DNA of 64,000 nucleotides from Spirochaetia bacterium. GTDB taxonomy: Bacteria > Spirochaetota > Spirochaetia > CADAEX01. How positions within the stretch are numbered: position 1 is the first letter of the stretch; each line of letters starts with the position of its first letter. The notes under the pieces are model-generated. The model did not search any database. It had not been told where the DNA came from and was given only the letters and a program-made list of their open reading frames with translations. Positions 1 to 16,724 of the stretch are shown here, in pieces. A program made the translations under genes and the position numbers. The stretch covers positions 1-64,000 of the forward strand of contig JAZURI010000001.1 of the NCBI GenBank assembly GCA_045606105.1, given 5' to 3'.

Positions 1-858
1 TGATCTAAAGTCCAAGTAATATAACTCATCTTTAAGTCTGTTTATTATAACAGACTCATTAAGATTACACAGTTTTAATTGTACATATTCTCTAGATAAC
101 TTGACACCTTCATCTCTCAAAGAAATAAAGTTTTTTTTACAAAACATATTATAATCTATTTCATAAGTATCAGCGTTAATGCAATTACAAATCTCTTCAG
201 CAATTGCATTTAATTGTAAAAATGAAATAATATAAGGCTTTTTGTTCTGAACTGATTCCAATATAAGAGTGTTTATTTTATCCAAAAAGTTTCTAATTCT
301 TCTTTCATACAATTTTTTATCACCATCATAATGAAAGAGCTTCTTATAATTCTCAAATATTTGTAAATCACAATCATAATTGGAAAGAAGTTTGTATCGT
401 TCTCTAATATAGTTAACCTTTCTTAAAAACAAATCCTTTTTGTTATTTTCTTTATATTCATTGTATACTCTTGTTGATAATGAAAGTCCTTGTGTTTTTT
501 CAATCGAGTTATACAGTTCATCAATATCTTTTTTATTTATAATGGAATCATCACAAGCATACCCGTTAGAAACAATTAAACAATAGTTTTCCGCATCATC
601 AGAAAGAATCCAATTATACAACACTTTTTTTGCGACAGCTTCATCAACATTTGTCTTTTTTACTTGATACAGGTTATTACCACTTTTGTTACTTTCCAGA
701 TAATAATTTGATTCAATATCATCAAGAACAGAAACATCATCAAGATATTCATATCCGATACTTTGACCTTCAGAAATATTTGCAAGTAGCGAAACAAAAG
801 TTTTAATTTGATAATAGAAACCGAACAAAGATTCTATTCCTGGATTATAATCAGTCAT
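1..858 (-). CDS. Cap4-like/LmuA-like dsDNA endonuclease effector (putative ABC-three-component/Lamassu type); 3' end truncated by window edge
   Basis: Absent from the ORF track. Translated by hand from ATG at 858, open to position 1: MTDYNPGIESLFGFYYQIK...GYEYLDD...LYQVKK...SREYVQLKLCNL. GFxYQ, ExxDD and QVK match the Cap4/Mrr-like nuclease pattern. Confidence 0.7.
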   Translation of the reverse strand, partial: MTDYNPGIESLFGFYYQIKTFVSLLANISEGQSIGYEYLDDVSVLDDIESNYYLESNKSGNNLYQVKKTNVDEAVAKKVLYNWILSDDAENYCLIVSNGYACDDSIINKKDIDELYNSIEKTQGLSLSTRVYNEYKENNKKDLFLRKVNYIRERYKLLSNYDCDLQIFENYKKLFHYDGDKKLYERRIRNFLDKINTLILESVQNKKPYIISFLQLNAIAEEICNCINADTYEIDYNMFCKKNFISLRDEGVKLSREYVQLKLCNLNESVIINRLKDELYYLDFRS

Positions 859-891
859 CCTCTACCTTCCTTCCACAATGGCAATTTTTTC
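854..891 (-). repeat. Direct repeat copy 1 (38 bp): gene end EKIAIVEGR* + AGG + ATG AC
   Basis: 32/38 identical to 1520..1557 by hand alignment. Confidence 0.9.
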
Positions 892-1524
892 TTTTGCCAG
901 CTTTTTTAATAAATTATCTACATCAAAAACATTGCTACTTTGAACAGCGTGAATTGATTCATCAAAAATAAGTGATATTTTGTTGCAAAGATCACTCGCA
1001 ACTTGAAGAAGCTTTTTCATATCATTAAATGATAATGGAAAGTCCTTTTGGAGTTTTCCGTTATTGTCTTTATATGCTTCATCCAAATGTGCATAAAACT
1101 TGTTACGCTGGTTTCTTAAGTTATCTCTTTCTTTAGAAACACTTTTTAATAATTGTCGACAATCATTAAGTTCACTAAAAATATCAATCGAAATTGTTTT
1201 TTCTAGTACATATTTGTCTGTATCGCAATCTATATATCCAACATCACGACTTGTTTTAAATAATGAAGTATTTTGTCGAGATATTTCTATCAATTTAAAT
1301 AAACTTGTTGAACTATTTTTATCAAAAAGCTTTGCTGTTTCAATAAAAACAGTATGCAATAAAGATGAATATGTCAGCTGAAAAAATGCTGGGGCAAAAT
1401 TCATTTCTGCTAAGTATTTTGCCTTGGATTCAATAAGATGCTTATACAATTCAAAGCAATCGTTTGTGTAAGTTATGCGAAAAAAATATTGGTCTAACAA
1501 AATCTTAAAAGATTCTTTTGTCAT
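862..1524 (-). CDS. HEPN domain protein (AbiU2-like), predicted RNase
   Basis: Rx4H motif RNKFYAH in an apparently all-helical 220-aa protein; defence-operon context. Confidence 0.8.
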   Translation of the reverse strand: MTKESFKILLDQYFFRITYTNDCFELYKHLIESKAKYLAEMNFAPAFFQLTYSSLLHTVFIETAKLFDKNSSTSLFKLIEISRQNTSLFKTSRDVGYIDCDTDKYVLEKTISIDIFSELNDCRQLLKSVSKERDNLRNQRNKFYAHLDEAYKDNNGKLQKDFPLSFNDMKKLLQVASDLCNKISLIFDESIHAVQSSNVFDVDNLLKKLAKEKIAIVEGR

Positions 1525-1557
1525 CCTCTACCTCCCCTCCACAACAGCAATCTCTTC
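1520..1557 (-). repeat. Direct repeat copy 2 (38 bp): gene end EEIAVVEGR* + AGG + ATG AC
   Basis: 32/38 identical to 854..891; copies are 666 bp apart. Confidence 0.9.
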
Positions 1558-4500
1558 ATCTGTAAGTCCATACAACTGATACACAAGGCGGTCTATTTCT
1601 GCTTCTTCTTTGCTTGTGTCTGCCTGCGGATTGGCTTTTTTTGAGGCGAGGATTTTATCCACCAAAGCGATGATGGGCTTTTGCTGAGCGGATGTGGCAG
1701 ATGGGATTGGAATGTTACGGATATGTTCTGGGTAAATGTGATAATCTCCGCCACGCAAGTTCGTAAGTAAAACGGAAGCATACTTCGAGTTCATCACGCA
1801 GAGCAAATAGCGCAAGTCTACAGTTTCAGAAAGTTTTTCCATTTCATCGCGGCTCATCGTGCTGAACTTCTTAATAGAAGAAGCAATGCTCTTATTTTCA
1901 ACGCCGTGCAAGTCTTTCCAAAGAATTCCACAATAGATTGAATGATTATGCAAAAAATGAACATCAAAATCTACTGTAGAATTTATTGTTCCAAGACAAT
2001 TCATAACAAGTTTTGGAGCATCGTATAATTCTCTAAATGTAGGGCGACGAATCTTATTGGGAACTCTTTTAGTATTATATTCCAAATATCGAATACGATT
2101 GATTTTATATTTTCCAACATCTTTTGCTTCAATGTATTCTCGACAATGGATTTCATCTTTACTTTTACTAATTAAGTCTTCTTTTGAGAATTCTCCTTTT
2201 GCAACTTTTTCATCAGCATTCAAAACCATTCCAACACTTATATAGCAATAATCGCCCAAGACGTGCATATCTGAGTGGCGGTTCGTTTCTCGCTTTTCCT
2301 GCGTTACGTTCCAAACCAGAGATTTTTCATCTTGAATTAAATCAGATATATTTTGTTCAAAAACACGTTGTATTTCCTTATTTTCAAAAATGTTGCTTAT
2401 CCAAGTTTTTTGTGTTCTATCTCCTTTTCTTACGAAAGGAATACAGTTTGAAACAGTTGCATTGTCAAAGATTTTTGTTCCGTTTAAATCTACTAATTCA
2501 TACATATTATTTTCTTCTACCAATATTTTGCGAAGAGATTTTGCATAAAGTTGATTTGTCAAAGGATAAGGTACAATCATTGAACAAATTCCGCTTTGTT
2601 TTAATCGTTGCAGACCAAATTCAATGAACACAATATAAATATCCCATTTTTGATATAAGGATTTGAATTTATTTGAATCAATTAATTTTTGTCTTTGTGC
2701 ATTCATTCCTTTATCTGCAATTTGAGCAGGTGCCGAGATATACGGCGGATTACCAATTACAATATCAAACCCATCCTTTATTCCAAACATCCATTCAGCA
2801 TCAAAGAATTCTGCACTTCGGTTCTTGTCGTAAGGATCCCATGTTGAAATCAGTTTAGCATTTTCTTTTCCGAATCCAAGTTTAAGCAATTCTTGTTCAA
2901 GTTCAGCTCTTATTCGTTTATCTTTCTGGCGAAGTTCGAACTTATGTTTAGGTGTTTTTGCCTTAAACAAATCATGGCGGACCTTTTGTAAAGTAAGCAT
3001 TAATTCATCAATTTCTTTAGAACTTAAATAAGCCTGCTGTTCATCAAGACCAATCAAACTGTTTGCAGTAACAAATCTATTCTCCAAGTTTGGTAACGGA
3101 CGCACGCCAAAGTTAGGTTTAGTTGAATCAACTTTCTGGTCAACAATAAGAGAAATAAAGAATCTAAGGCGGCTGATCTGTGTCGCAATCGGTTGAATAT
3201 CAATACCATGAATACAGTTTTCAATAAGATATAATTTTCTTGCATAATCCAATTCATTATCATCAAAAACTGTTAAAAGTTCTTTTTGAAGCTCATTCTT
3301 TTCTTTTGGAGTAAGCATTGTATCGTTCGAGATTTTTTGTATTTGAATCTGCTTCCAATTATCATTTTGAGGATCTAGTTTATGAATAACATAAACTATT
3401 TTCTGCAAAATACCCATAGGGAATGCACCGGAACCACAGGCAGGATCTAGAATTTTACATTCGTCAATGTAACGCAAAATTTGGAAACATTCTTCTGATG
3501 TAAACTCAGGCTCGGTTTCGTTATAGGCAATGAGATTGTTGAGTTTTGAATCCAGGGTGTTTTCGAGTTCTTCTACAGCTTTTGTTTTTTCTTCTAATGT
3601 TCCCTTAGAAAGTGCAGAATCTTTTATCTTTGTTTTTAAGTAAGCTTTTAAACTTTCATCAACCATGTATTCTACAATTGGTCGCGGAGTATAAAAACTA
3701 CCAGTCTGTTTACGGGCATTAGTTTTGGTTTCAGGGTTATAAGAAGCAAGAAGGTTTTCAAATACACGTCCTAAAAGTTCCGGGTCAAGTGCAATATCTT
3801 CTTCAACAGGAGTGTTTTCTGCAATTGTAAATTTGTATTTTTGAAGGATATTGATAATTCCGTTTACTGTAACATCTTTTTTCTTTTTATCATCGTATTC
3901 TGTACTAAGGTCAACCTTAACGTCTTTTCCAAAGAAAACATAATCAGGAACAAATAGTTCATTATCTTTACGGTCGCTAAAACCATCTTCATAATTTATT
4001 ATTGCTCCGCCTTTTTTACCTTTTTTTTCATCATCCTGATGGTCAAGACATTCAAAAAGACCGCCATTCATAAATGGCACTTTTGATTCTATTAATTCAA
4101 CAAAATTATCTGGATTGTTATGAAACCTCTGATATCTCATAAGACTTGTAGCATTTTGATTTTGACCATCAAGTCTAAAGGCTCGCTTTCCCCGTTCTGC
4201 ATTAAGACTTGCAAAGAAAAGATTTTGAAGAATTGCTTTATAATAAATACTTTTATTCTCTTTATCTATTGCATCGGAAGAATAATATTTATCTGGTTCA
4301 AAAGAAGTAATTAAATTATTTATTACTTTTTCATCAAATAATTCCTCTGGAATTAATTCTTTTTCTTTTATAAACCAAACAAATAAAAGTCGAGTTAAAA
4401 GTCGGATAAGATTTTTTGCATTATGTTCACGAAGTTTATCTTCTTTTGTAAAGAGAGTACCACGGGCAGCTTCCATTTCATAGCCGGGATAAACAACAGT

Positions 4501-5226
4501 TTTAATTGCCCAGAAATACCAGTTAGAAAGTTCAGTGTAAAAGCGTTTATTGAGGGTCTGTGTATCAAGAACTTGGCACCATGCTTTATGAAGTGTTTCA
4601 AAGTTGTAGATTGTATATTCTGCATTCAATTGTGCAAAACTCATATCAAAAAGAATTTCAATATGAGCGCGGTGAGGTTTTTCAAAAAAAATATCTTTAA
4701 TCAAAGTTACTTTTTCTAAAACATCTCTCTCATTGTCTCTTTTATTTACACGGCGATTAATAACTGAAAGAGTTAGTAATTTTGCATATTTAAAAATAAT
4801 TATAATTGGTATCGAGAATAATTTATTTATTTCTCGCGTAATGCCGGCAATTTGTGTCTTTGAGTATTCATTTTTCTTTAATTCAATGGCAAAGCATAGG
4901 TACGATTGAATATCAGTAGGATTTATGCTTTTTTTGAATAAAGATTTTGTTCCATTAAAAGAATCATTTGTAAGTTGAAAAAGAATGTCTATTGATTTCC
5001 AATCAGAAACAAGTGTTTTTTCTTCGCTAAATCTATCGGCAGAAGGAGATGAATCAATATAATTTTCTTTAAACTCCGTATATGTTTTTTTATCTAATGG
5101 AGCTTGTAAACTTGTATCATAACCAAGTACTGAAAAAAGATTTATTCCGGCATTTGTTATATCGTCGTTAGCAAATAACTTGATTGCTTCCTGAATATCT
5201 AATTTTTCAGCAGTATTTTTTGCCAT
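1528..5226 (-). CDS. Large N6-adenine DNA methyltransferase with C-terminal TRD (Eco57I/Type IIG-like)
   Basis: GSFYTP, motif I DPACGSGAF, motif IV GNPPY and a typical IIG C-terminus IDRLVYQLYGLT. Start is probably ATG 5226 (alternative 5235) rather than 5256. Confidence 0.9.
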   Translation of the reverse strand: MAKNTAEKLDIQEAIKLFANDDITNAGINLFSVLGYDTSLQAPLDKKTYTEFKENYIDSSPSADRFSEEKTLVSDWKSIDILFQLTNDSFNGTKSLFKKSINPTDIQSYLCFAIELKKNEYSKTQIAGITREINKLFSIPIIIIFKYAKLLTLSVINRRVNKRDNERDVLEKVTLIKDIFFEKPHRAHIEILFDMSFAQLNAEYTIYNFETLHKAWCQVLDTQTLNKRFYTELSNWYFWAIKTVVYPGYEMEAARGTLFTKEDKLREHNAKNLIRLLTRLLFVWFIKEKELIPEELFDEKVINNLITSFEPDKYYSSDAIDKENKSIYYKAILQNLFFASLNAERGKRAFRLDGQNQNATSLMRYQRFHNNPDNFVELIESKVPFMNGGLFECLDHQDDEKKGKKGGAIINYEDGFSDRKDNELFVPDYVFFGKDVKVDLSTEYDDKKKKDVTVNGIINILQKYKFTIAENTPVEEDIALDPELLGRVFENLLASYNPETKTNARKQTGSFYTPRPIVEYMVDESLKAYLKTKIKDSALSKGTLEEKTKAVEELENTLDSKLNNLIAYNETEPEFTSEECFQILRYIDECKILDPACGSGAFPMGILQKIVYVIHKLDPQNDNWKQIQIQKISNDTMLTPKEKNELQKELLTVFDDNELDYARKLYLIENCIHGIDIQPIATQISRLRFFISLIVDQKVDSTKPNFGVRPLPNLENRFVTANSLIGLDEQQAYLSSKEIDELMLTLQKVRHDLFKAKTPKHKFELRQKDKRIRAELEQELLKLGFGKENAKLISTWDPYDKNRSAEFFDAEWMFGIKDGFDIVIGNPPYISAPAQIADKGMNAQRQKLIDSNKFKSLYQKWDIYIVFIEFGLQRLKQSGICSMIVPYPLTNQLYAKSLRKILVEENNMYELVDLNGTKIFDNATVSNCIPFVRKGDRTQKTWISNIFENKEIQRVFEQNISDLIQDEKSLVWNVTQEKRETNRHSDMHVLGDYCYISVGMVLNADEKVAKGEFSKEDLISKSKDEIHCREYIEAKDVGKYKINRIRYLEYNTKRVPNKIRRPTFRELYDAPKLVMNCLGTINSTVDFDVHFLHNHSIYCGILWKDLHGVENKSIASSIKKFSTMSRDEMEKLSETVDLRYLLCVMNSKYASVLLTNLRGGDYHIYPEHIRNIPIPSATSAQQKPIIALVDKILASKKANPQADTSKEEAEIDRLVYQLYGLTDEEIAVVEGR

Positions 5227-5237
5227 ATTATTCATCC

Positions 5238-8200
5238 TTATTTGATAATTAACCAAGTTACAAGTTCAAAATCATTTACATTTGAAACTTGTTTATTTTT
5301 ATTTATTAGAACTGCGTTTCTACTTGTAGTAAGTTTCATTGCACTTCGTTTCTTAAAGCTTGTCATTATTTCTGCCACAGCCTTTTCCAGTGAATCTGTA
5401 TATTTTGTCATGTCAGAGCCGTTGTTTGTTTCTGTGTTGAAAAGTTCGCAGAGTTTATCATACGGAACATTTTCACCAGAACACAAAAGTCTGTATATTT
5501 CCAAAATAGATTTTGCACTGGTAAAGTTAAAAATCTTTGAGCCATCTTCATAAATGTAAACTAAGAAGTAAGGATTTAACGGATTAATTTTTTCACATTC
5601 TTCGTTTTCATTTTTCTGGCGAAGACAGAAAATAATTCCGGGTTTTATGATTTTTTTTGCAGTTTCATCGATTTGCTTTTTATGTGGCTGTACGATATTC
5701 TCTGGAGAAGGAACTATTGCATAAATTCCGTCTGGAGAATTCTTTACTTTAGCTTCATTCAGTTTAAGGAAGTTAATAAGTTCAATCCTAAAATCATCCA
5801 AAGTAAAATCAGTCAAAGAAATTGAGTCTATCATGTCTTCCAAATCTAGAACTTCATCTTTAAGACGTTTAAGTTGTTGATCACGATATTTTAAGTCTTC
5901 CTCGATTAGTTCTTTTGTTTCAGAATTGGCAAGAATGTTATCTTCATTGGTTGCAGTAAGGTCTACCAACGCCATTCTACTTTCAACACGAGTTTTAAGG
6001 TTTATATAATTATCTAAATCTTGTGTTGGCCAGAAGTTTACAAGCTGAATACATTTATTTGTACTTCCTAAACGGTCAATTCGTCCAAAGCGCTGAATAA
6101 TTCGAACAGGATTCCAGTGAATATCATAGTTAATAAGATAGTCTCCATCCTGTAAGTTCTGACCTTCGGAAATACAATCTGTAGCAATAAGAATATCAAG
6201 TTCTTTTGATTTTTCTTCTACACTAAGATTCAATTCATCGCGATGCTTTGCTTTTGGTGCAAAGTTTGTAAGAATCATACTAAAATCTGTTCTTCCCCAT
6301 GTTGATGTACTTTTTGAACCACAGACAAGGCCGGTCTCTAGATTAAATTCATTTTTTGCCCATTGATGGATTGCTTTATAAAGATATTCCGCAGTATCAG
6401 AAAAAGCTGTAAAAATTACGATTTTCTTGTTGTTTTTATTAATCGGTTTTTCTGTTTTTTCTTTGATGAGATGCTTCAGCTCTTTTAATTTAGAATCCCT
6501 ATCTACGGAAACTTGATTTGCACTGCTGTACAAAATCTTAAAGGCATCTTTATCACTTTTTAGATCTTCAAGCCATCTGTCAAGTTCAAGGTCTTGTAGT
6601 TTAAATTTTAATTTTCTACCAACTTCCAGATTTTGTTCATTTTCCCAATCATCTAAATCATTTTCTATAATTTCGATATTCTCAAAATTTTGTTCAACTT
6701 CGTATGATGAGGTGTTCTCTTTTTTAGCTTCTAATTCTTTGAATACAGCAATTTTCTGTTCAATTTCAGAAATTTTATCTATCGTTCTCTTAATTGAAAG
6801 TGAAAATGAATGAATAGAACTTTCTAGTCTTTTCAGGTAGCCGATTTTCATCATACCAATCAAAGATTTTTCACGGTCTGCCTGAATGAATGCTTCAACC
6901 GAAGAACCTGCTTCTGTTGCATATTCTGCTTTTTTGTCTTCTTTTAAATATAAAGAAGGTGAAAAAAGTGCAAGTTTATATTTTGAAATCTGTTCATCAA
7001 TTGCTGCATAACTTGGGAACATGTCTTCTGTATCAATACTTGAATAAACTGGGATAGGCTTTTTTCTTTCAGGAAATTTTCCCACATCAGCTTCGTTGTA
7101 AAATTTTATGATATGTTTTCTAGAACGTGCAATTGTTAATTCATCAAGTAGTTTGAAGAATGAGGAATCTAGTTTTTCAAGTAATTGTTTTGTTGTTCTA
7201 TCTGGATTTTTTTTAGGGTCTGCCCAATTAGTGAACTGTTTTTGTGCTGTTTCAAGAGTTTTACTTATGTCAGTGATTCCAGTTGTTTCAAGAAGTGCAC
7301 TCTGATTTCCTTCTGTAATAAGATTAATCTGATTACGTAAATCCTTAAGAGTGTTGTTAACGGGAGTTGCAGAAAGCATAAGTACTTTTGTCTTGCTCCC
7401 GGATTTGATGATTTTTTCCATGAGCCATTTTGCACGGTTCATGTATCGTTCCCCTTTATAGTTTTCTTTATCCATAGGGTTGCCTTTAAAGTTATGACTT
7501 TCATCAATAACAACAAGGTCGTATGCACTCCAGTTGAAAGTTGAAAAATCGTGACCATCTGCACCAGATTTACCAGTTTCACGTCCCATATCAGTATGAT
7601 ATAAAATGTTATACTGAAAACGGTCTTTTGCAAGAATATTCAAAGTGCTGTTTTTACTTGCCTGGTATACGGTCCAGTTGTCGCTTAGTTTTTTAGGACA
7701 AAGAACTAGAACGCGATAATTGCGAAGTTCAAAATATTTAATAACAGCGAGAGCTTCAAATGTTTTTCCAAGACCAACAGAATCTGCAATAATACATCCA
7801 TTATGTTTTAATAGTTTATTGATTGCACCTTTTACACCATCTTTCTGGAATTCATAAAGTTTGTTCCAAACAACAGTATCCCTGAAAGCAGTTTCATCAA
7901 AAAGTTTATTATCTTTTTGTTCGTCTAAATAATCCTTAAAAATACTATATAGAGTTTTAAAATATACAAGTTCTGGCTCATTTTCTTTATAGAGAAGTTC
8001 AAGATACTTTAAGACTTCTTCTTTTACATCCTGTACAAGGCCTGTAGTATCATTCCAAATAGAATCAAACCAGCCTTTCATTTCATCTTTTTGCCTATCA
8101 CTGTCTACAATAAGGTTTAGTTCAATATTGTTGGCTTCTTTTTTTAGACCAAGACCACTTGTTGTAAAATTTGAACTTCCTGATATAGCTTTTGGATATC

Positions 8201-8588
8201 CTTTTGCATCCAAATCAGTGTAATACATTTTTCCATGAAGAAAATTGGGTTTTACAATTGATTTAATTTCAACCTTATTTTTAATCCATTCTGCACATTT
8301 TGATGCAATTCTTCTTTGTCCAAATTTTTCTGTTGGAGAAATTATAATAGAATCATCTTCAATTTTATAATTACGAACATTAGAGTTGATTGTATTTACA
8401 AATGTTGGTTCTCCAAAAAGAAACTTCATATTTTTGATAGAATCTAACTGTTCATGAAGCCCATAGTACGCAAAAATAGTAAAGTAAGCTGAAACAAGAG
8501 ATAATTCTGATCCTTCTCTTATTACATCTTTTAAGAATTCTCCTACACTACCATAATTTTTATTATCTTTGATTAATGTATCTGCCAT
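5238..8588 (-). CDS. SNF2-family helicase with N-terminal PLD (HKD) nuclease domain
   Basis: LHGKMYYTD and GSSNFT (PLD); ADSVGLGKT, DESH, SATP, SEGQNLQ, QRFGRIDRLG (SF2/SNF2). ATG at 8588. Confidence 0.9.
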   Translation of the reverse strand: MADTLIKDNKNYGSVGEFLKDVIREGSELSLVSAYFTIFAYYGLHEQLDSIKNMKFLFGEPTFVNTINSNVRNYKIEDDSIIISPTEKFGQRRIASKCAEWIKNKVEIKSIVKPNFLHGKMYYTDLDAKGYPKAISGSSNFTTSGLGLKKEANNIELNLIVDSDRQKDEMKGWFDSIWNDTTGLVQDVKEEVLKYLELLYKENEPELVYFKTLYSIFKDYLDEQKDNKLFDETAFRDTVVWNKLYEFQKDGVKGAINKLLKHNGCIIADSVGLGKTFEALAVIKYFELRNYRVLVLCPKKLSDNWTVYQASKNSTLNILAKDRFQYNILYHTDMGRETGKSGADGHDFSTFNWSAYDLVVIDESHNFKGNPMDKENYKGERYMNRAKWLMEKIIKSGSKTKVLMLSATPVNNTLKDLRNQINLITEGNQSALLETTGITDISKTLETAQKQFTNWADPKKNPDRTTKQLLEKLDSSFFKLLDELTIARSRKHIIKFYNEADVGKFPERKKPIPVYSSIDTEDMFPSYAAIDEQISKYKLALFSPSLYLKEDKKAEYATEAGSSVEAFIQADREKSLIGMMKIGYLKRLESSIHSFSLSIKRTIDKISEIEQKIAVFKELEAKKENTSSYEVEQNFENIEIIENDLDDWENEQNLEVGRKLKFKLQDLELDRWLEDLKSDKDAFKILYSSANQVSVDRDSKLKELKHLIKEKTEKPINKNNKKIVIFTAFSDTAEYLYKAIHQWAKNEFNLETGLVCGSKSTSTWGRTDFSMILTNFAPKAKHRDELNLSVEEKSKELDILIATDCISEGQNLQDGDYLINYDIHWNPVRIIQRFGRIDRLGSTNKCIQLVNFWPTQDLDNYINLKTRVESRMALVDLTATNEDNILANSETKELIEEDLKYRDQQLKRLKDEVLDLEDMIDSISLTDFTLDDFRIELINFLKLNEAKVKNSPDGIYAIVPSPENIVQPHKKQIDETAKKIIKPGIIFCLRQKNENEECEKINPLNPYFLVYIYEDGSKIFNFTSAKSILEIYRLLCSGENVPYDKLCELFNTETNNGSDMTKYTDSLEKAVAEIMTSFKKRSAMKLTTSRNAVLINKNKQVSNVNDFELVTWLIIK

Positions 8589-8645
8589 TATTTTCCCCAA
8601 TTAAATTTATACTCATTCCTATCTTGTCTTAAATAAATTATTAAA

Positions 8646-8900
8646 TTACCATTTTGTAATTTTAACAGTTTTTTTATCTTCACAAATCTCTCTTCTATTC
8701 ACCACGCAAATATCTCCAACATCACAATCCAAAGCTTTACAAACTTTTTGTATGCTTTCCATAGAGACAAACTCTCCTTTGTTCATTTTAGCAAGTATAT
8801 TTGTTGATATTCCTGCAAGTGGTATTAAATCTGTTTTCTTCTTAATATCTTTATCAATAAGAAGTTTCCATAATTTTTTATAATCTACTTGTTCTTCCAT
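8646..8900 (-). CDS. Cro/C1-type (XRE) HTH transcriptional regulator
   Basis: YKKLWKLLID...AGISTNILAKMNKGEFVSMESIQKVCKALDCDVGDI. Likely start ATG 8900. Confidence 0.85.
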   Translation of the reverse strand: MEEQVDYKKLWKLLIDKDIKKKTDLIPLAGISTNILAKMNKGEFVSMESIQKVCKALDCDVGDICVVNRREICEDKKTVKITKW

Positions 8901-9124
8901 GACACAAAAAATTATATCATGAAACTTTTTTTTATATAATAAATATTGATTAAACGTGATATTTTTTCTTACGTGAAAGTATACCACTTAATAATCGGCT
9001 CCCAATAATTGAAAATGATTCTTGTCATTTTAATGGAATGTTTTTTGTGAAAAGACTTACTTTACAGGCGACTTTGACACAACCTGGGAGCAGGTATGTG
9101 CAGGCTGCGGCGGACTGCTGGATT

Positions 9125-9676
9125 TTATAAAGGAAAAAAAGGGCACCGGCTTCTGATACATTGCCTGTTGCTGCCGTAAAAGGTACATTTTACAGGGGCG
9201 GTTTCCAGAGGTATGCCGTACTTTTCATTCATGAAAAGAGCTGCGGTTTCCAGGGCCAGGAAAGCATTGCGCTTGCAGCATCTCGGTCCCCCTATGCCGC
9301 TCATGGCAGCCAGAACCCGGGATGTATATTCCATATGATCCTTATAGAAACTGTTGTCTGAAAGAGGTCCTGTTCCGTGAAGCACCGACATGGCGGCCCC
9401 CACCGAGGCGACAGCACCGCAGATTCCCCAGTTGCCGCAGATGGCTCCCGGGATTTTTTCTGCCTGAAGGGCCAGTTTTTCCAGAGCCTGTTCCAGGTCT
9501 GTTTCCATGCCGCTGTTCCTGCAGGCCGCAAGAAAGGCTGCTCCGTCAAGGAAATGATGTAAAGGGCCGTGGAGAGGGACAGGGTTCTTTTTCATTATGG
9601 CCTCTGCCACGGTTACCGGATTTCTTGAATCAGATTTTAGGATATCTTCGCATATTCCTGCATATTCGGTTTTCAT
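9125..9676 (-). CDS. DUF5714-like cysteine-rich protein
   Basis: HGPLHH, GAICGNWGICGA, GGPRCCKR and C-terminal C..C..CPF. Confidence 0.7.
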   Translation of the reverse strand: MKTEYAGICEDILKSDSRNPVTVAEAIMKKNPVPLHGPLHHFLDGAAFLAACRNSGMETDLEQALEKLALQAEKIPGAICGNWGICGAVASVGAAMSVLHGTGPLSDNSFYKDHMEYTSRVLAAMSGIGGPRCCKRNAFLALETAALFMNEKYGIPLETAPVKCTFYGSNRQCIRSRCPFFPL

Positions 9677-9726
9677 GATATACTATGCTCAGCATATTTT
9701 TTAAAATATGTCAATAAACCGGAATG

Positions 9727-10116
9727 TCAGGAGGGGAGAGGTCCGGTTGCTTCCACATATTTTCCAACCCACATACCGATGCACACACCAAGGAAGCAGC
9801 AGAAGAGAGAAACGGAGATATAAAGGAAAGCAATTACAATCTTCCCCTCCTGGAACAGCATGATATTTTCCATGCTGAAGGTGGAGAAGGCTGTGAGACC
9901 TCCGCAAAGACCGGTTTTAAGAAAGAGAGATATGTTCTTGCTGAGAAGAACCGAACTGAAAAACCCTATTATGAACGCACCCACAAGATTCGCAATAAGC
10001 GTGGAAAACGGGAACGCACTCTTCAAAGGAAGCAGTGTAATAAGGTATCTGACAATGGCACCTACGGCTCCGCCGCAGGCTACTGATACTATGTTAATCA
10101 TCATATTCATTTTCAA
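9727..10116 (-). CDS. crcB: Fluoride channel FluC/CrcB
   Basis: GGAVGAIVRY, TLIANLVGAF, GLCGGLTAFSTF; about 4 TM segments; exact start uncertain. Confidence 0.9.
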   Translation of the reverse strand: MKMNMMINIVSVACGGAVGAIVRYLITLLPLKSAFPFSTLIANLVGAFIIGFFSSVLLSKNISLFLKTGLCGGLTAFSTFSMENIMLFQEGKIVIAFLYISVSLFCCFLGVCIGMWVGKYVEATGPLPS

Positions 10117-10261
10117 TTATAGATTCACACGGTTTTTTCATATTGTCAAGAAAAATTTTCACTTTTTTAAAAATTATACTTTTAAAAAAGGTAGCTTTTA
10201 TTTTAGTGAGTGTAGCATTGTTTGACACAGGTGTATATTATAATAAAAACAGAGGTTAGCT

Positions 10262-11506
10262 ATGATTAATTTGCTTTTATCTATCATTATTATACTTTTG
10301 GTTCTGAATATTGTGCTTGTAATCACGTTAAACGGGAAAAGCAGGGGTGAAAAAAAGCTCTTGCTCATCGGAGAAAAACTGGACATTCTCTCCGCAGTAC
10401 TCCGGGAGGAGCTTGAAAGAAACAGACGCAGCATTTCGGAGTCGGGACGGGAGGCCAGAGCTGAAAACCGGGAGACTCTTCTGGGGTTCATGAATACCCT
10501 TTCGGACCGTTTTGATGCCCTTACCGACCGGATGCAGGAGAGTCTGGCCATGCAGCAGAAAATTGTTCAGGCTTCAATGAAGGAAATTCGTGAAAGCAAC
10601 GAGAAGAAGCTGGAGGAGATGAGGATTACCGTGGATGAAAAGCTTCAGTCCACCCTGGAAAAACGGCTGAACAGCTCATTTGAGCTGGTTGGAAAGCAGC
10701 TGGAGGCAGTTCAGAAAGGGCTTGGTGAAATGCAGACCCTTGCCGGAGATGTGGGCGGTCTCAAGCGGGCTCTTACAAATGTGAAAACTGCAGGGGGTAT
10801 AGGAGAGGTTCAGCTGGAGGCGCTGCTTGCCCATATCCTTTCTCCGGACCAGTATGAAAAGAATGTCCATCCGAATCCGTCAAAAAGCGGAAAGGTGGTG
10901 GAATTTGCTGTTCTGCTTCCGGACAAGGAGACAGAGCGGAAATTCATATATCTTCCTGTAGATTCCAAATATCCGGCCACAGTCTGGGATAACCTGACCC
11001 TTGCATATGAGCAGGGAGACAAGGAGGCCATAGAGCAGTACAGAAAGGCATTGGTACGGGATATAAAGAGCTTTGCCAAGGATATAAAGGAAAAATATAT
11101 AGAAGTTCCGTATACTACCGATTTCGGTGTCATGTTTATCCCTTTTGAGGGACTTTTTTCGGAAATTATCAGGATTCCGGGGCTGGTTCAGCAGATTCAG
11201 GATGAATTCAAGGTGGCTGTTGCAGGGCCGACAACCCTTACCGCCTTCCTCAACAGCCTTCAGATGGGCTTCCGTACCCTGGCCATAAGAAAGGAGTCCT
11301 CCAGGATATGGGAACTGCTGGGTGCAGTACGGTCTGAATTCGGTAAATTCGGTGATATTCTGGCTGCTACCAGGAAGAAGCTTGATGCTGCCTCAGGTGA
11401 AATCGAGAAGGCAGAAAACAGAACCAGGCAGATTGAAAAGAAGCTTGATAAGCTGGACAGCATGGAAGTCCTTGCTGCCCCGCCTGAAAATCACATAAGC
11501 TTCTGA
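10262..11506 (+). CDS. rmuC: DNA recombination protein RmuC
   Basis: N-terminal TM, coiled coil, GEVQLE, LPVDSKYP, TTDFGVMFIPFEGL, GPTTL. Confidence 0.93.
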   Translation: MINLLLSIIIILLVLNIVLVITLNGKSRGEKKLLLIGEKLDILSAVLREELERNRRSISESGREARAENRETLLGFMNTLSDRFDALTDRMQESLAMQQKIVQASMKEIRESNEKKLEEMRITVDEKLQSTLEKRLNSSFELVGKQLEAVQKGLGEMQTLAGDVGGLKRALTNVKTAGGIGEVQLEALLAHILSPDQYEKNVHPNPSKSGKVVEFAVLLPDKETERKFIYLPVDSKYPATVWDNLTLAYEQGDKEAIEQYRKALVRDIKSFAKDIKEKYIEVPYTTDFGVMFIPFEGLFSEIIRIPGLVQQIQDEFKVAVAGPTTLTAFLNSLQMGFRTLAIRKESSRIWELLGAVRSEFGKFGDILAATRKKLDAASGEIEKAENRTRQIEKKLDKLDSMEVLAAPPENHISF

Positions 11507-12048
11507 CCGTCGGAGAAGGCCTTGCCTACAATCTTTCCCAGACCGATATAGGTCTTGTTGACTGTATCGTAGGTTATGGCCTTCAGTTTGGACGGATCTA
11601 TTTTCCCCTCTGTCAGGATACTCTCCTCAGCCAATATATTTACGATACGTCCTACAGCCTGTTCGGTTTCATCGTCATAGCTGACTAATTCGCACTCCAG
11701 TGTCATCGGCAACTGGGAAATTACCGGTGCATCCACAAAGCTGCTTTTTTCGGCAGTAAATCCCGCCCTTTTTACCTTATCAGGCACCTTACGGGCCGAA
11801 ACTATTCCTACATAATCACAGGCTGTCATGTTTGCTTCATCAGCAACAGCTACAGTGAAAGCCTTGTGAAGCTTTATATTTGCCACAGTCTTGTGCCCCT
11901 TGTCCAGGCAGATGCAGACCATGTTTTCGTTGAAGATACCGCCCCAGGCTGCAGTCATAAGGTCAGGCTCGTTGTTTTCATCGTAGGAGCCTACCATCAG
12001 AACAGGCATGGGATAAAGGATGGTTTTCTTTCCGAGATTGATTTTCAT
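11491..12048 (-). CDS. Flavin reductase family protein (flavoredoxin-like)
   Basis: LYPMPVLMVGSYD, MTAAWGG, DYVGIVS, GKAFSDG. Start ATG 12048. Confidence 0.85.
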   Translation of the reverse strand: MKINLGKKTILYPMPVLMVGSYDENNEPDLMTAAWGGIFNENMVCICLDKGHKTVANIKLHKAFTVAVADEANMTACDYVGIVSARKVPDKVKRAGFTAEKSSFVDAPVISQLPMTLECELVSYDDETEQAVGRIVNILAEESILTEGKIDPSKLKAITYDTVNKTYIGLGKIVGKAFSDGQKLM

Positions 12049-12117
12049 TGTTCCTCCTGAAAAAAATATACCATGAAATTTGACTTTGTGAAAAATTTTT
12101 ATTATTTTTCGTGGACA

Positions 12118-12136
12118 TGTGTCATTATTTGACACA
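12118..12136. promoter_or_regulatory. Inverted repeat TGTGTCA-N5-TGACACA, putative TF binding site
   Basis: Perfect 7-bp arms between divergent genes; contains TTGACA. Confidence 0.5.
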
Positions 12137-12209
12137 GGCGTTGCTTTATTATCTATGTAGGATGGGGAGAAATGCCCCTGCAACTGAAACTGAACTGAAA
12201 GGAGAGACT

Positions 12210-12526
12210 ATGAGTTATTACCATGTTGAGGCAAAGATGGGACATGTAGGGAAAGGGCGTTACTTTAAGGGGAATCTCTATATCTGGGCCGAAAACGGCA
12301 GGGAAGCTGCCACCAAAGCCAGAAACTGTCCGAGAGTCAAGCATGACCGTAAGGATGCCATAATCAGTGTCAGGGCAATCAGCGAGGATGAATACATGAA
12401 AGGAAGCCCAGGAAAAAGCATTCCATGAAGCCGGCAGAGGTGGACGACATTATGTTTGATTACGATTCCGAGCTCTTCATGATGCGGAACGTGGATCTGT
12501 CACAGCTGGGATTTGCCGTTGCGTGA
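12210..12526 (+). pseudogene. Small hypothetical protein, probably frameshifted or internally deleted (ORFs 12210-12428 and 12425-12526)
   Basis: RBS GGAG before ATG 12210. MGHVG..PRVKH..AI..V..I..EY is followed by an open second frame (RKPRKKHSMKPAEVDD...FAVA*) and then a terminator-like hairpin. Confidence 0.45.
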
Positions 12527-12754
12527 TTCCGAAGAAGCCTGTTGAAAAACAGGTTGTTTTTATTTGTTATTATTGTGTGTATGTTTGCCGGTTATGGCGG
12601 AAATATTTACAGAATCGGTTTCAGAATTCCTCAAGAAGCAAAAAACTACAAAGATTTCTGTAAAAAAATAATGATATCCGAGGAGAGCCTCCGTAATTCA
12701 CTTTTTCTGCAATAAAAACTTGACTTCCGTTCCTGCCGTTATTATTTTTTAAAT

Positions 12755-12850
12755 AACAAAAGGGGAGTAGTTACTTCCGCAGAATCAACAGCCGATTCGA
12801 AAGAGTCTGGTTCTGCGGCTTCAATTTTGGAGAAACAAGACCTTTTGCCT
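12755..12850 (+). ncRNA. yybP-ykoY (Mn2+-sensing) riboswitch
   Basis: AAAGGGGAGUAG 5' motif, UCAACA...CUGG, 3' AAGACCUUUUG. P1 is CAAAAGG/CCUUUUG. Putative promoter TTGACT-17-TATTTT at 12720-12748. Confidence 0.8.
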
Positions 12851-12894
12851 GATTGTTCCGGTTTTCGGAAGTTTGGGCAAAGGGTCTTTTTTTT
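12837..12894 (+). terminator. Riboswitch expression-platform intrinsic terminator
   Basis: AAGACCTTTTGCC...GGCAAAGGGTCTT followed by a T-tract; shares the 3' strand of aptamer P1. Confidence 0.8.
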
Positions 12895-12913
12895 GATTGA
12901 TCGGGAGGTTTTT

Positions 12914-14026
12914 ATGGAGCATCTGTTAACAATGACCTGGCAGCAGTTTGCCATGTTCGGTATCGGCGGTCTGCTTATTTATCTGGCTATTGCAAAGGAT
13001 TACGAGCCCATGCTTCTTCTTCCCATCGGGTTCGGTACCATTCTGGTAAACCTTCCTCTTTCGGTGGTTCTGGGTTCTGCCGATCATCCCGGTGCCCTTA
13101 AGCTTCTTTTCGACTACGGTATAATGACCGAGCTTTTCCCTCTGCTGATATTTATCGGCGTAGGTGCCATGATTGATTTCCGCCCTTTCCTGAAGCGCCC
13201 CTGGCTTATTGTTTTCGGGTTGGTGGCTCACTGCGGTATTTTCATTGCAGCGGCGGTTGCCTACTTTGTTTTCGGCTTCAATATAAAGGATGCCCTCAGT
13301 ATCGGTACTATCGGAGCTGCCGACGGTCCTACCGCAATTCTCGTTGCCGGCCGGCATGCAAGAGATCTCCTGGGACCTATTACCGTGGTTGCCTACTCCT
13401 ACATGAGCCTTGTTCCCATTATCATGCCTCCCGTTATCAGGATGCTTACAACAAGGAAGGAAAGATTGATGAGAATCGAGGGCGAGGATTCAGATATTCC
13501 CCGTATTGTGGTAATTCTTTTCCCTATATTGGTTACTCTGGCAGTAAGCCTCCTTATTCCTGCGGCCGCGGCTCTTATCGGATTCCTCATGTTCGGAAAC
13601 CTGATACGGGAAAGCGGTGTCATGGAAAAGCTTTCCAGGGCGGCACAGAATGAGCTTTCAAATATTGTTACTCTGCTGCTGGGTATCAGTGTGGCTGCCG
13701 GCATGACTGCTGACAAGTTCCTTACTCTCCAGACTCTTTTAATCATGCTTCTGGGATTGATAGCCTTTATCGGTGATACTGCAGCCGGCGTTCTTTTTGC
13801 CAAGTTCATGAACCTTTTCCTGAAGAAGGGAAAAAAGATAAATCCTATGATAGGTGCCTGCGGTATCTCGGCATTCCCGATGGCCAGCCGTGTGGTTCAG
13901 AAGCTGGCTTTTGAGGAAGATAAGCATAATTATATTCTCATGCATGCAATATGTGCCAATGTATCGGGGCAGATAGGTTCCCTGATAATCGGCGGTCTTA
14001 TACTCGGTTACCTTGCCGGAATCTGA
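12914..14026 (+). CDS. oadB: Sodium ion-translocating decarboxylase beta subunit (OadB/GcdB/MmdB family)
   Basis: EPMLLLPIGFG, FPLLIFIGVGAMIDF, IGAADGPT, AYSYMSLVP, SAFPMASR. RBS GGAGG before ATG 12914. Confidence 0.92.
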   Translation: MEHLLTMTWQQFAMFGIGGLLIYLAIAKDYEPMLLLPIGFGTILVNLPLSVVLGSADHPGALKLLFDYGIMTELFPLLIFIGVGAMIDFRPFLKRPWLIVFGLVAHCGIFIAAAVAYFVFGFNIKDALSIGTIGAADGPTAILVAGRHARDLLGPITVVAYSYMSLVPIIMPPVIRMLTTRKERLMRIEGEDSDIPRIVVILFPILVTLAVSLLIPAAAALIGFLMFGNLIRESGVMEKLSRAAQNELSNIVTLLLGISVAAGMTADKFLTLQTLLIMLLGLIAFIGDTAAGVLFAKFMNLFLKKGKKINPMIGACGISAFPMASRVVQKLAFEEDKHNYILMHAICANVSGQIGSLIIGGLILGYLAGI

Positions 14027-14054
14027 TTTTTTACCTTGCCAAATTTCTCCTTTG

Positions 14055-14084
14055 CCGTCCGGTCTCCCGGACGGTTTTTTATTT
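14055..14084 (+). terminator. Intrinsic terminator
   Basis: CCGTCCGG-TCTC-CCGGACGG followed by a T-tract. Confidence 0.8.
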
Positions 14085-14156
14085 CCTGTCACCAAAAATG
14101 AATTCTTGTCGTAAATATCGGCAGAATATGTTATAATAAACAAATAGGGATTTATA

Positions 14157-16724
14157 ATGCTGCCTGGAAATTGTCGTATATTTCTTGTATCGGACAGAAA
14201 TGAATTTGTAGAAAAAACAGCCTCAATAAAAGATATTCGATTCGATGCAATAAAGAAGAAATATTTAATTACTTTTTATTCTTCTCCTAATAAGATTTAC
14301 ACTTATTCGAAGGAAAAAGTGTCCATTTTATGTGATAAGCAAGAAGAAAAAGAATCAGAAAATCAGATATATAATTATCTTAAATCAATAGCAGACTTCA
14401 GTGAAATAAAAAATGAGTTGGGAGAAAGTCTTCTTTCAAAATTTTTTATGAATTACAATTCTGTTAATGAAAAATCCATACTGATGAATTATATAAATCC
14501 ATCACGACGACCGAGAAAAGAGTTTTGCATAAATGATCCTATTTTTCCATTTGGCTGCAATAACAGCCAGTATCGGGCGGTAAAAACAGCATTATCTGAA
14601 TCTATCAGCATTATTCAGGGACCTCCCGGAACAGGAAAAACTCAAACTATATTAAATATTATAGCAAATATCCTTATCTGTAATAAAAGAGTACTGGTAG
14701 TTTCCAATAATAATTCCGCAACAAAAAATATCATGGAAAAACTTTCATCAGAAAAGTATGGACTTGATTTTCTATGTGCTTTTCTTGGTAAAAAAGAAAA
14801 TAAGGAAGATTTTCTGGGCAGGCAGACCGGAAGATATCCTTCCTATCTGGAGAGTTGGGGTTGTCAAAATGTAAATGTCATTGAGCATCAGCAAAAACTT
14901 GAAAAGTTAAAATCTTTTTTTTATATTACTGAAGAAATATCTGCTCTCAGACAGGAGCTTTCTGATATAGAAACCGAAATTAAACATTATAATCTGACAA
15001 ATAAAACAGATACTTCCAGTCAAAATCTGAAAAATTTTACATCTGAAAATATTATGAATATAAAGCAGAAAATCGGATACAGATTTTCTGATAAAAGAAA
15101 GATTTCCGGATTTTGTAAATTTATTCTTTTGCTTAGGTATGGATTAGGAACATTTAAGTTCTGGAAAACCTCCGATGAAGATATTATGAATATGTTGGAA
15201 TTTGCTTTTTATGAAGCAAAGAAAAAGGAACTGGAAGCAGAAATTGAAAAAAAACTTTATTTTGCAGAAAGTTTTGATCCACAATCGGTATATGACGAAT
15301 CTCTGGCTATTCTGAAAAATCATATTTATAAACGGTATGAAAATAAAAAAGAACGATGCATATTGAAAAAAGTCAGTTCGCAGACTGATTTTGCTGTTCT
15401 GCACAGAGAATATCCTATAATTTTAAGCACAACATTTTCATCCCGAAATTGCATGCCTTTTTTTAACAGAGATTTTCTTTATGATTACCTTATTGTTGAT
15501 GAGGCCTCGCAGGTTGACATAGTAACCGGGGCATTGGCATGTTCTTGTGCAAAAAATGTGGTTATTGTGGGTGATAAAGCCCAGTTGCCGAATGTTGTAG
15601 ATGATTATACCGCCAGGATGACACAGGAAGCTCTTCATAAATTTGGTTTAGGTGATGGATACAGTTTTAAAAATAGTTTTCTGGAATCTGTTGAAAAAGT
15701 ATTAACTTATGTTCCTCAGACTATGCTTCGGGAACATTATCGATGTCATCCGAAGATAATCAATTTCTGTAATCAAAAATTTTATGACAATCAGCTTATT
15801 GTTATGACTGAAGATAAGGGGGAAAAGGATGTTCTTAATGTTCTGAGAACAGTTCCCGGTAATCATTGTTCAGATTCTTATAATCAAAGACAGATTGATG
15901 TTATAAAAGAGGAAATTCTGCCGGATCTGAAGAATACAGAACCTGAAAATATTGGCATTGTGACACCTTATAATAATCAGGAAAACAGATTGAATCAGGC
16001 TTTTAAAGACATAGATTCGTCAACTGTACACAAATTTCAGGGGCGTGAAAAGGATACCATCATTATTTCAACGGTAGATAACGAAATTACCCCTTTTGCT
16101 GATAATGCAAATTTATTTAATGTGGCAGTATCCCGTGCAAAAAAACAACTTTACATTGTTATTTCAGGAAACGATCAGCCCGAAAATACCAATATAATGT
16201 CTTTGGTTTCATATATTGAATACAATAACTGTGTTATAAAGGAAAGTGGTGTAAGATCTGTTTTTGATTATCTGTATAAACAATATTCAGATCAGAAATT
16301 CCATTTCCTAAAGGATAAAAAGAAAATTTCGGAATATGATTCAGAAAACATTATATTCAATGTTCTGGAAGATATTTTCAAAGAAAAAGAATTTTCCCAT
16401 CTTTCTTCCATCTTTGAATTTCCTCTAAAAAATATTTTGGTTTCTGAAAAATTTTGTAATCTTGAAGATAAAGTGAAAAAATATGCTTTAAATATTTTTA
16501 CTCATATTGATTTTGCTGTTTACAGAAAGCTTGATAAGAAACTGCTTGGTGCAATAGAGGTGGATGGATACAGTTATCATAAAGAAGGATCGCAACAGGC
16601 AGAACGGGATAGAATGAAGAATCATATTTTTGAATTACATGAAATACCGTATCTCAGAATCTCTACCAAATCATCCGGAATTCAGGAAAAAATAAAAAGC
16701 TGGTTAAGAGAAATAACGAAATAA
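14157..16724 (+). CDS. UPF1/DNA2-NAM7-like SF1 helicase with C-terminal DUF2726-like nuclease-fold domain
   Basis: IQGPPGTGKT, DEASQ, VGDKAQL, EHYRCHP, TVHKFQGREKD, NVAVSRAK; C-terminal HIDF...AIEVDG..H...RD..K; AT-rich. Confidence 0.88.
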   Translation: MLPGNCRIFLVSDRNEFVEKTASIKDIRFDAIKKKYLITFYSSPNKIYTYSKEKVSILCDKQEEKESENQIYNYLKSIADFSEIKNELGESLLSKFFMNYNSVNEKSILMNYINPSRRPRKEFCINDPIFPFGCNNSQYRAVKTALSESISIIQGPPGTGKTQTILNIIANILICNKRVLVVSNNNSATKNIMEKLSSEKYGLDFLCAFLGKKENKEDFLGRQTGRYPSYLESWGCQNVNVIEHQQKLEKLKSFFYITEEISALRQELSDIETEIKHYNLTNKTDTSSQNLKNFTSENIMNIKQKIGYRFSDKRKISGFCKFILLLRYGLGTFKFWKTSDEDIMNMLEFAFYEAKKKELEAEIEKKLYFAESFDPQSVYDESLAILKNHIYKRYENKKERCILKKVSSQTDFAVLHREYPIILSTTFSSRNCMPFFNRDFLYDYLIVDEASQVDIVTGALACSCAKNVVIVGDKAQLPNVVDDYTARMTQEALHKFGLGDGYSFKNSFLESVEKVLTYVPQTMLREHYRCHPKIINFCNQKFYDNQLIVMTEDKGEKDVLNVLRTVPGNHCSDSYNQRQIDVIKEEILPDLKNTEPENIGIVTPYNNQENRLNQAFKDIDSSTVHKFQGREKDTIIISTVDNEITPFADNANLFNVAVSRAKKQLYIVISGNDQPENTNIMSLVSYIEYNNCVIKESGVRSVFDYLYKQYSDQKFHFLKDKKKISEYDSENIIFNVLEDIFKEKEFSHLSSIFEFPLKNILVSEKFCNLEDKVKKYALNIFTHIDFAVYRKLDKKLLGAIEVDGYSYHKEGSQQAERDRMKNHIFELHEIPYLRISTKSSGIQEKIKSWLREITK

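Follow-up and report, generated by a model that had tools for sequence, protein, structure and literature searches.

Near-identical ends of a methyltransferase gene and a HEPN gene in a spirochaete defence operon: a putative recombination scar reused as a coding tail

The 64,000-nucleotide (nt) stretch of Spirochaetia DNA analysed here (contig JAZURI010000001.1; "the window" denotes this whole stretch) opens with a defence operon, read on the minus strand, in which two unrelated proteins end almost identically. One is an Eco57I-type N6-adenine DNA methyltransferase (MTase), the other a protein of the HEPN_AbiU2 family encoded directly behind it, and the similarity of the two gene ends continues into the start codon of the gene that follows each of them: the HEPN gene in the first case, a nuclease-like gene in the second. 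The locus thus raises the question of how one gene end came to stand twice in the same operon and what the second copy may do there. The comparisons below identify this copy as an orphan 3' fragment of an MTase gene that continues the HEPN gene in frame. It is read here, with moderate confidence, as a recombination scar of the type known as insertion with long target duplication, retained because it proved useful.

The repeat and its source

In the initial annotation of this DNA, the two gene ends had been described as identical at 32 of 38 positions and as lying 666 bp apart, which a recount confirmed. A repeat search extends the direct repeat to 43 nt at the same spacing (81% identity; 35 of 43 positions by direct count; coordinates in Table 1). 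The longest exact run shared by the copies measures 14 nt, the next 7 nt and all others at most 5 nt. A 26-nt pattern of the repeat, allowed up to three mismatches, was sought throughout the window; it occurs at these two sites only, whereas 100 shuffles gave an expectation of 0.00. The repeat exists as described, and chance does not account for it. Each copy also holds, as had been claimed, a purine-rich Shine-Dalgarno (SD)-like tract, a stop codon and the ATG of the following gene: the MTase closes with EEIAVVEGR and the HEPN protein with EKIAIVEGR, and both endings are followed by TAG, AGG and ATG. The spacing corresponds to 222 codons, and the open reading frames (ORFs) of the MTase, the HEPN protein and the nuclease share one frame; because each junction consists of a stop codon, 3 nt and an ATG, this common frame involves no further coincidence. 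The six differences within the 38 positions are confined to the 27 coding bases; stop codon and junction are identical at 11 of 11 positions. In its coding part, copy 2 matches the resident MTase tail at 21 of 27 positions and the allele of a related locus, L001, at 23 of 27 (related loci and homologous proteins are referred to by numbers with the prefixes L and P).

The shared tail is a characteristic of the MTases. Among the 120 best MTase homologues, 98 carry the motif LYxL..EE within the last 45 residues, and 32 have the exact ending [IV][IV]EG[RK]. The 21 HEPN homologues mostly end otherwise, which favours the initial annotation on this point: 12 terminate in KDGSK, seven have other short endings or are truncated, P0002 has the ending KEEFYIEKDKI, which is MTase-like as well, and an IVEG tail occurs in P0001 only, a protein 95% identical to that of the window, whose ending EEISIVEGK is the same as that of the MTase P0040. 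At the DNA level, the HEPN gene of the window tracks the HEPN gene of locus L007 as far as ...AAAGA and follows the MTase tails thereafter. Since the tail is typical of MTases and atypical of HEPN homologues, these comparisons indicate that it is native to the MTase and foreign to the HEPN_AbiU2 gene, at whose end the orphan MTase fragment has taken the place of about four native codons. Plasmids are uninformative on the origin of the tail: the HEPN protein matches only AbiU2 genes of Enterococcus and Lactococcus plasmids that are remote from it (31%). P0035 had been considered as coming from a sister strain and was dropped, its identity being only 79%.

The part of the MTase gene that was duplicated has a particular position between conserved and variable sequence. 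When seven Treponema-type MTase genes are aligned, their DNA identity amounts to 0.7-0.9 over the first two thirds, falls to 0.15-0.5 over the recognition domain, rises again to 0.62-0.69 over the last approximately 200 nt and collapses past the stop codon. On this alignment, the gene end forms a short island of conservation, bordered by the variable recognition domain on one side and the variable downstream gene on the other. Within it, none of the eight aligned junctions departs from the heptamer TTGTGGA, and the codons for V-E-G(R/K) double as the purine-rich SD tract of the next gene; selection therefore acts on the junction DNA.

The junction behind related methyltransferases

One scan of genome contigs with the MTase yielded 78 related loci, in 27 of which the MTase C-terminus was aligned. 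In the Treponema-type loci, 3 nt (4 nt in L002) separate the MTase stop codon from the gene behind it, which is mostly a different one each time (Table 1). The clearest case is provided by L001 (4008-6595) and L007 (13712-15225), which share the same flanks, with the MTase tail on the left and a gene for a protein of 288-290 aa (58% identical) on the right; enclosed between them are the gene of an uncharacterized 572-aa protein in L001 and a HEPN gene in L007, both of which end in AAATGA and overlap the next start codon. The slot behind the MTase tail is truly variable. L007 is also the single locus among the 78 that has the HEPN gene, which there lies directly behind the MTase tail, ends in KDGSK and has no second tail copy. 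The junction between MTase and HEPN gene in the window is therefore ordinary, and only the joint at the 3' end of the HEPN gene is special; the notion that the HEPN gene generally travels together with a repeat is contradicted by the same locus. No MTase-like tail was found at the end of any other Treponema-type cargo gene by a peptide-motif scan that overlooked the window's own copy, which reads EKI and not EEI. In L010, the same 26-nt junction as in the window, including ATGAC, stands once, in front of an unrelated gene. In the distal part of such operons, HEPN_LA2681/TPR proteins and Schlafen-AlbA_2/HATPase_c_4 proteins recur (L002 11194-12690, L003 9743-11071, L005 19198-20757 and L010 16369-16593), the latter opening with the same N-terminus, MSESQLIEYKESW.

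Orphan MTase ends occur at other loci as well. Each locus was searched with the last 123 nt of its own MTase gene plus 12 nt, and extra copies of the MTase end were detected in L015, L027 and L037; a wider control run over 488 ORFs of at least 250 aa, 16 of which were flagged, added L020 and L046. By the authors' own sorting of the BLAST matches, orphan 3' fragments belong to 5 of 59 MTase-end ORFs compared with 1 of 428 other ORFs (Fisher p = 1.2e-4). One flagged MTase ORF, in L036, was not counted, its matches representing a short tandem repeat at gene junctions, and nine of the ten flagged ORFs among the 428 were read as distant paralogues, adjacent paralogues or junction repeats. The lone true orphan in the control set stems from a D12-class (Dam-like) methyltransferase gene (L006 3515-5166), whose 3' end recurs as a 58-nt copy with 84% identity some 660 nt further downstream; the phenomenon may extend beyond the Eco57I-type family.

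The most elaborate arrangement is found in L015, from Methylobacter (13380-16260). Four toxin-antitoxin cassettes follow the true MTase end (PemK/MazF, YoeB/ParE-like, ParE and ParE, each with a small partner ORF), and each overlaps a tail copy by ATGA at its start. They are separated by MTase 3' fragments of 34-107 nt with 88-97% identity and by a repeated terminator-like hairpin with a 16-bp stem; in the repeat search, the repeats measure 86-112 nt with 87-93% identity, and a 62-nt stretch is 97% identical between two of the inter-cassette joints. This 24-kb locus has 17 ORFs of 150 aa or more, and no integrase was identified among the 10 of them that were scanned. An IS200-type Y1 transposase gene lies between helicase and MTase (8906-9442), and the MTase itself is present as two overlapping ORFs (9665-13523), possibly because of a frameshift. 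In L027, from Flavobacterium (11435-12680), three copies of the MTase end each continue, through a stop codon and A-rich spacer DNA, to the next ATG, the genes concerned being a 166-aa ORF and a 112-aa ORF, both without a Pfam family, and a Schlafen/AlbA_2 protein. Two loci from Desulfobacterales, L037 and L046, carry a HicAB module between the true and the orphan tail, which abuts the next ATG, and the orphan fragment of L020 is positioned 250 nt downstream of the MTase end. Altogether, duplicated MTase ends bracket cargo of the abortive-infection (Abi) and toxin-antitoxin types in four phyla; the orphan copies have diverged there too (86-97% identity), and at some loci they are non-coding or contain stop codons.

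Several weaker matches complete the survey. Besides pointing to L015, the motif scan turned up short tail remnants in L004, L006, L016 and L076, and a repeat search of L004, L006 and L016 gave no long repeat; two matches of 13-14 nt in L017 (E 0.002-0.006) were taken as chance. At L020 (13947-18100), a 26-nt element at the MTase 3' end recurs 4 kb downstream (100%) and once in inverted orientation, and looks like a small dispersed repeat.

How the second copy may have arisen

The target-duplication reading can be spelled out as follows. Two modules would have been joined by recombination at the conserved MTase 3' island, one in which an MTase gene leads into the HEPN gene and one in which the 3' end of an MTase gene leads into the LmuA-like nuclease gene. 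Copy 2 would be what the joining left of the second module: the 3' end of a homologous MTase gene with its stop codon, the 3-nt spacer and the ATG. The joint lies within the last HEPN codons, at a short microhomology (approximately AAGA). The outcome takes the shape of an insertion with long target duplication; an equivalent description has one side anchored by homology and the other joined illegitimately. In naturally transformable bacteria, homology-facilitated illegitimate recombination can add foreign genes through one homologous anchor and one microhomology joint and can duplicate part of the anchor. The likeness lies in this combination of anchor and microhomology joint, and for the organism of the window the process is a proposal only. 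Either of the two modules may have been the resident one. The scar would have been kept because it is useful to both neighbours, in that the HEPN gene gains its last 8-9 codons and a stop, and the nuclease gene gains ribosome-binding purines and a start codon. Since stop, ribosome site and start are all supplied by the scar, all genes would stay translationally coupled in one operon.

Several observations weigh against this account. An empty allele, in which the MTase leads directly into the nuclease gene, was not seen among the 78 related loci, so that the target-duplication reading is drawn from the anatomy of the locus. The 6 mismatches in 38 positions imply that the duplication is old or that a foreign allele was involved. 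At its left end, the repeat includes ATGAC, a sequence common to the HEPN gene, the nuclease gene and the unrelated gene of L010, and this sharing looks more orderly than a random illegitimate joint. The cassettes of L015 with their identical flanks suggest repeated use of a site and not single accidents. The enrichment of orphan fragments, finally, hangs on the sorting described above, and two of its five loci, L037 and L046, carry the same cargo and are not independent.

Part of this evidence points towards the proposal made in the initial annotation, namely that the HEPN gene and one repeat form a precisely excisable mobile cassette that enters and leaves by recombination between the tails, the MTase tail being a site at which interchangeable defence cassettes dock without an integrase. 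By construction, a deletion between the copies would restore an intact junction of MTase and nuclease gene. The L015 repeats are long enough for RecA, no integrase was seen there, and the three tail copies of L027 likewise each precede a next ATG; together with the shared ATGAC, these arrays argue for a repeated and orderly use of the site. Cargo varies behind the same junction in L001, L003, L005, L007 and L010, and in L010 the junction of the window is found as a single copy. The proposal is partly supported: borne out are the MTase origin of the HEPN tail, a recurrent boundary with varied and translationally coupled accessory genes behind it, the alternative cargo in L001 and L007 and the duplicated ends around other cargo in unrelated bacteria. 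No second cargo was encountered between the same two Treponema-type repeats. Further points count against an active cassette. Besides the missing empty allele, the nuclease gene was found by tblastn in 0 of the 78 loci and was likewise without a match on plasmids, the HEPN gene of L007 lacks flanking repeats, no other Treponema-type cargo gene has an MTase-like tail, and the 14-base exact run makes the window copies a weak substrate for excision. Taken as a whole, the model of a mobile cassette with its docking site is rather unlikely. Marginally less doubtful, and still to be regarded as speculative, is a broader version in which the roughly 200-nt MTase 3' end is a portable, integrase-free adapter that comprises a C-terminal LYGLTxEEIxIVEG helix together with ribosome site, stop and start. 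Defence and toxin-antitoxin genes might then travel with a copy of it and be stacked behind related MTases by homologous recombination, in frame and translationally coupled, into integron-like arrays such as that of L015, and the HEPN gene of the window would be one of the cassettes that can be gained and lost.

Two further readings were weighed. An in-place duplication of a long target by enzymatic insertion, for example through a staggered break and fill-in, would have produced copies that were identical at first and drifted later. The distribution of the differences fits this idea, as all six are in the coding bases, where copy 2 is now under different selection, and the stop and junction part is unchanged; long target duplications without a mobility gene are, moreover, documented for restriction-modification genes (PMC2853133). 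For a local copy, however, the divergence of the coding part (22%) is high, the orphan copies elsewhere have diverged as well, and the coding part is slightly nearer to the L001 allele than to the resident tail, which leaves the in-place route improbable. Far less credible still is convergence, by which the HEPN gene would have evolved the same C-terminal peptide and junction independently, for a common binding partner or as a ribosome-binding site. Selection on the junction does exist, as the invariant TTGTGGA and the double role of the V-E-G(R/K) codons attest, but 19 of the 21 HEPN homologues have unrelated tails, the identity extends through stop codon and spacer into ATGAC, and comparable orphan fragments at other loci are non-coding or bear stop codons.

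The operon and its relation to known systems

The repeat lies in a low-GC island that reaches from position 1 to about 9000 (Table 1). Its GC content of 0.26-0.36, with 0.20-0.24 at third codon positions, compares with 0.445 for the whole window and climbs to 0.43-0.50 near position 9000, where the boundary adjoins a DUF5714 gene and an RmuC gene. The whole defence operon was probably acquired horizontally. Profile scans of the five visible genes (1-8987) detected no transposase or integrase.

Table 1. Genes and repeat copies of the low-GC island, with the genes that follow the MTase in related loci
Feature	Position or locus	Strand	Description
Cro/C1-type helix-turn-helix (HTH) gene	8646..8987	-	head of island; Pfam HTH_26, E 5e-16
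PLD(HKD)+SNF2 helicase	5238..8600	-	1120 aa; Pfam PLDc_2, SNF2-rel_dom, Helicase_C; PADLOC C3a139 'HKD+Snf2', E 1e-127
Eco57I-type N6-adenine DNA methyltransferase	1528..5256	-	DUF4391-like N-terminus; longest ORF 1242 aa, database form P0022 1232 aa
Repeat copy 1	1520..1562	-	native MTase tail ...DEEIAVVEGR, TAG, AGG, ATGAC opening the HEPN gene
HEPN_AbiU2 gene	862..1524	-	220 aa; Pfam PF18734, E 1.1e-22; R-x5-H motif at residues 140-146; last 8-9 codons MTase-derived
Repeat copy 2	854..896	-	orphan MTase 3' fragment, fused in frame to HEPN; gives HEPN stop, SD tract and ATG(AC) of next gene
Putative LmuA-like (Cap4-type) nuclease	1..858	-	N-terminal 286 aa; ORF continues past the window edge; relatives about 360-390 aa
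Gene behind MTase	L001, L017		572-aa protein
Gene behind MTase	L002		DUF2971 protein, then HEPN_LA2681 protein
Gene behind MTase	L003		YhcG/DUF1016 nuclease
Gene behind MTase	L005		1498-aa protein
Gene behind MTase	L007		HEPN
Gene behind MTase	L010		DUF7380/DUF4209 protein

The MTase, which has more than 5000 homologues, matches the Pfam families Eco57I (9e-31), N6_Mtase (3e-17) and, under the cut-off of that family, DUF4391 (7e-6), as well as the Type IIG models of PADLOC (E 1e-59). The HEPN protein is a member of HEPN_AbiU2, scoring 81 bits against a curated cut-off of 26.8, and its residues R140, N141 and H146 are nearly invariant among 22 aligned sequences. Class 1 DISARM was considered for the operon and set aside: the matches to DrmD (1e-36) and DrmMI (1e-14) are far weaker than those to C3a139 and to the Type IIG models, and the island has no DrmA or DrmB gene.

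The downstream gene owes its name to remote relatives and a fold search alone, since neither Pfam nor PADLOC gave a match to the window's fragment itself. Its 155 relatives share the invariant residues E37, D41 and Q64-V-K66, and the PADLOC LmuA model is matched by 5 of 40 family members. The predicted structure of the closest relative, P0142, which is 60% identical to the fragment of the window, has a pLDDT of 92.6; in Foldseek it retrieves LmuA (9hr5_C, E 1.2e-10; 9nxx, TM 0.52-0.53) and, more weakly, Cap4 (1e-3). The label of nuclease given in the initial annotation is reasonable on the strength of this modelled fold. The family (P0142-P0291) is one without a Pfam model and yet with an LmuA/Cap4-type fold and invariant E, D and QxK residues. 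Likeness to the LmuA of Lamassu is seen in the fold with its Cap4-type nuclease domain and in the conserved E..D...QxK, at a sequence identity of 11-14% and with only the N-terminal 286 aa of the gene product encoded in the window. In Lamassu, LmuA is accompanied by a neighbouring SMC-like LmuB, with or without LmuC; the gene of the window sits behind a restriction-like operon and not behind a visible SMC gene of Lamassu.

Insertions with long target duplication have been described for restriction-modification genes, with repeats of more than 30 bp and no mobility genes; an example given by Furuta et al. (2010; PMC2853133) has repeats of 46 bp with 44 of 46 positions identical. The locus of the window resembles them in the imperfect direct repeats of more than 30 bp around an insert without a mobility gene and in the restriction-modification setting. 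The published inserts are the R and M genes, whereas here the MTase 3' end serves as the target and one HEPN_AbiU2 gene as the insert, the duplicate has been co-opted as coding tail and translation signals, and other loci have toxin-antitoxin inserts. Judged by sequence, the locus may thus represent a known class with reversed roles, in which the MTase end is the target, the cargo is of the Abi or toxin-antitoxin type and the duplicate is reused. A relation also exists to the movement of recognition domains of restriction-modification genes through flanking conserved repeats (abstracts of PMC3077401 and PMC3467074; Type IIG domain substitution is mentioned in PMC2853133): a short conserved stretch beside a hypervariable recognition domain would act as homology arm in both. 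At the present locus, what varies beyond the conserved stretch is an entire downstream gene and not a domain. The arrays of L015 and L027 recall integrons: genes without promoters follow one another in the same orientation behind a fixed site, with repeats between them. Integron repeats are attC hairpins, whereas the repeats here are fragments of a coding gene, and no integron integrase was detected among the five island genes or in the scanned ORFs of L015. A literature search on this MTase family and on tail duplication, which was not exhaustive and did not cover supplements, returned nothing on point.

The gene content of the operon has a parallel in the EcoprrI locus, a type I restriction locus that contains the HEPN anticodon nuclease PrrC; AbiU2 is itself listed as occurring in restriction-modification operons (both from PMC3710099). 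Common to the two is a HEPN RNase gene in an operon of the restriction-modification type. PrrC has an N-terminal ABC ATPase fused to the HEPN domain and partners a type I system, whereas the protein of the window consists of the HEPN domain only, and its putative partners are the PLD-SNF2 helicase and the Eco57I-type MTase. PrrC stays inactive while bound to the restriction complex, until a phage anti-restriction factor frees it. By analogy, the HEPN RNase and the LmuA-like nuclease may be back-up effectors of the abortive-infection type behind a restriction-like system of helicase and MTase.

The gain and shuffling of genes in defence islands without visible mobility genes is poorly explained, and the locus offers a concrete and repeatable anatomy for it: a short conserved gene end flanked on one side by a hypervariable recognition domain and on the other by a downstream slot whose content varies. 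If the MTase end indeed serves as a homology adapter, it would explain why back-up effectors (HEPN, LmuA-like, YhcG, Schlafen-like and toxin-antitoxin) gather behind these MTases and how accessory genes without promoters of their own are expressed, and new accessory defence genes would become traceable through a simple sequence signature. If copy 2 is a scar only, it still represents a clear case of a recombination by-product co-opted as coding sequence and translation signals.

Elsewhere in the window, two ORFs of 550 and 571 aa on the plus strand (50293-51945 and 52539-54254) have a 69-nt stretch near their 3' ends in common (86% identity); these neighbours are probably tandem paralogues.

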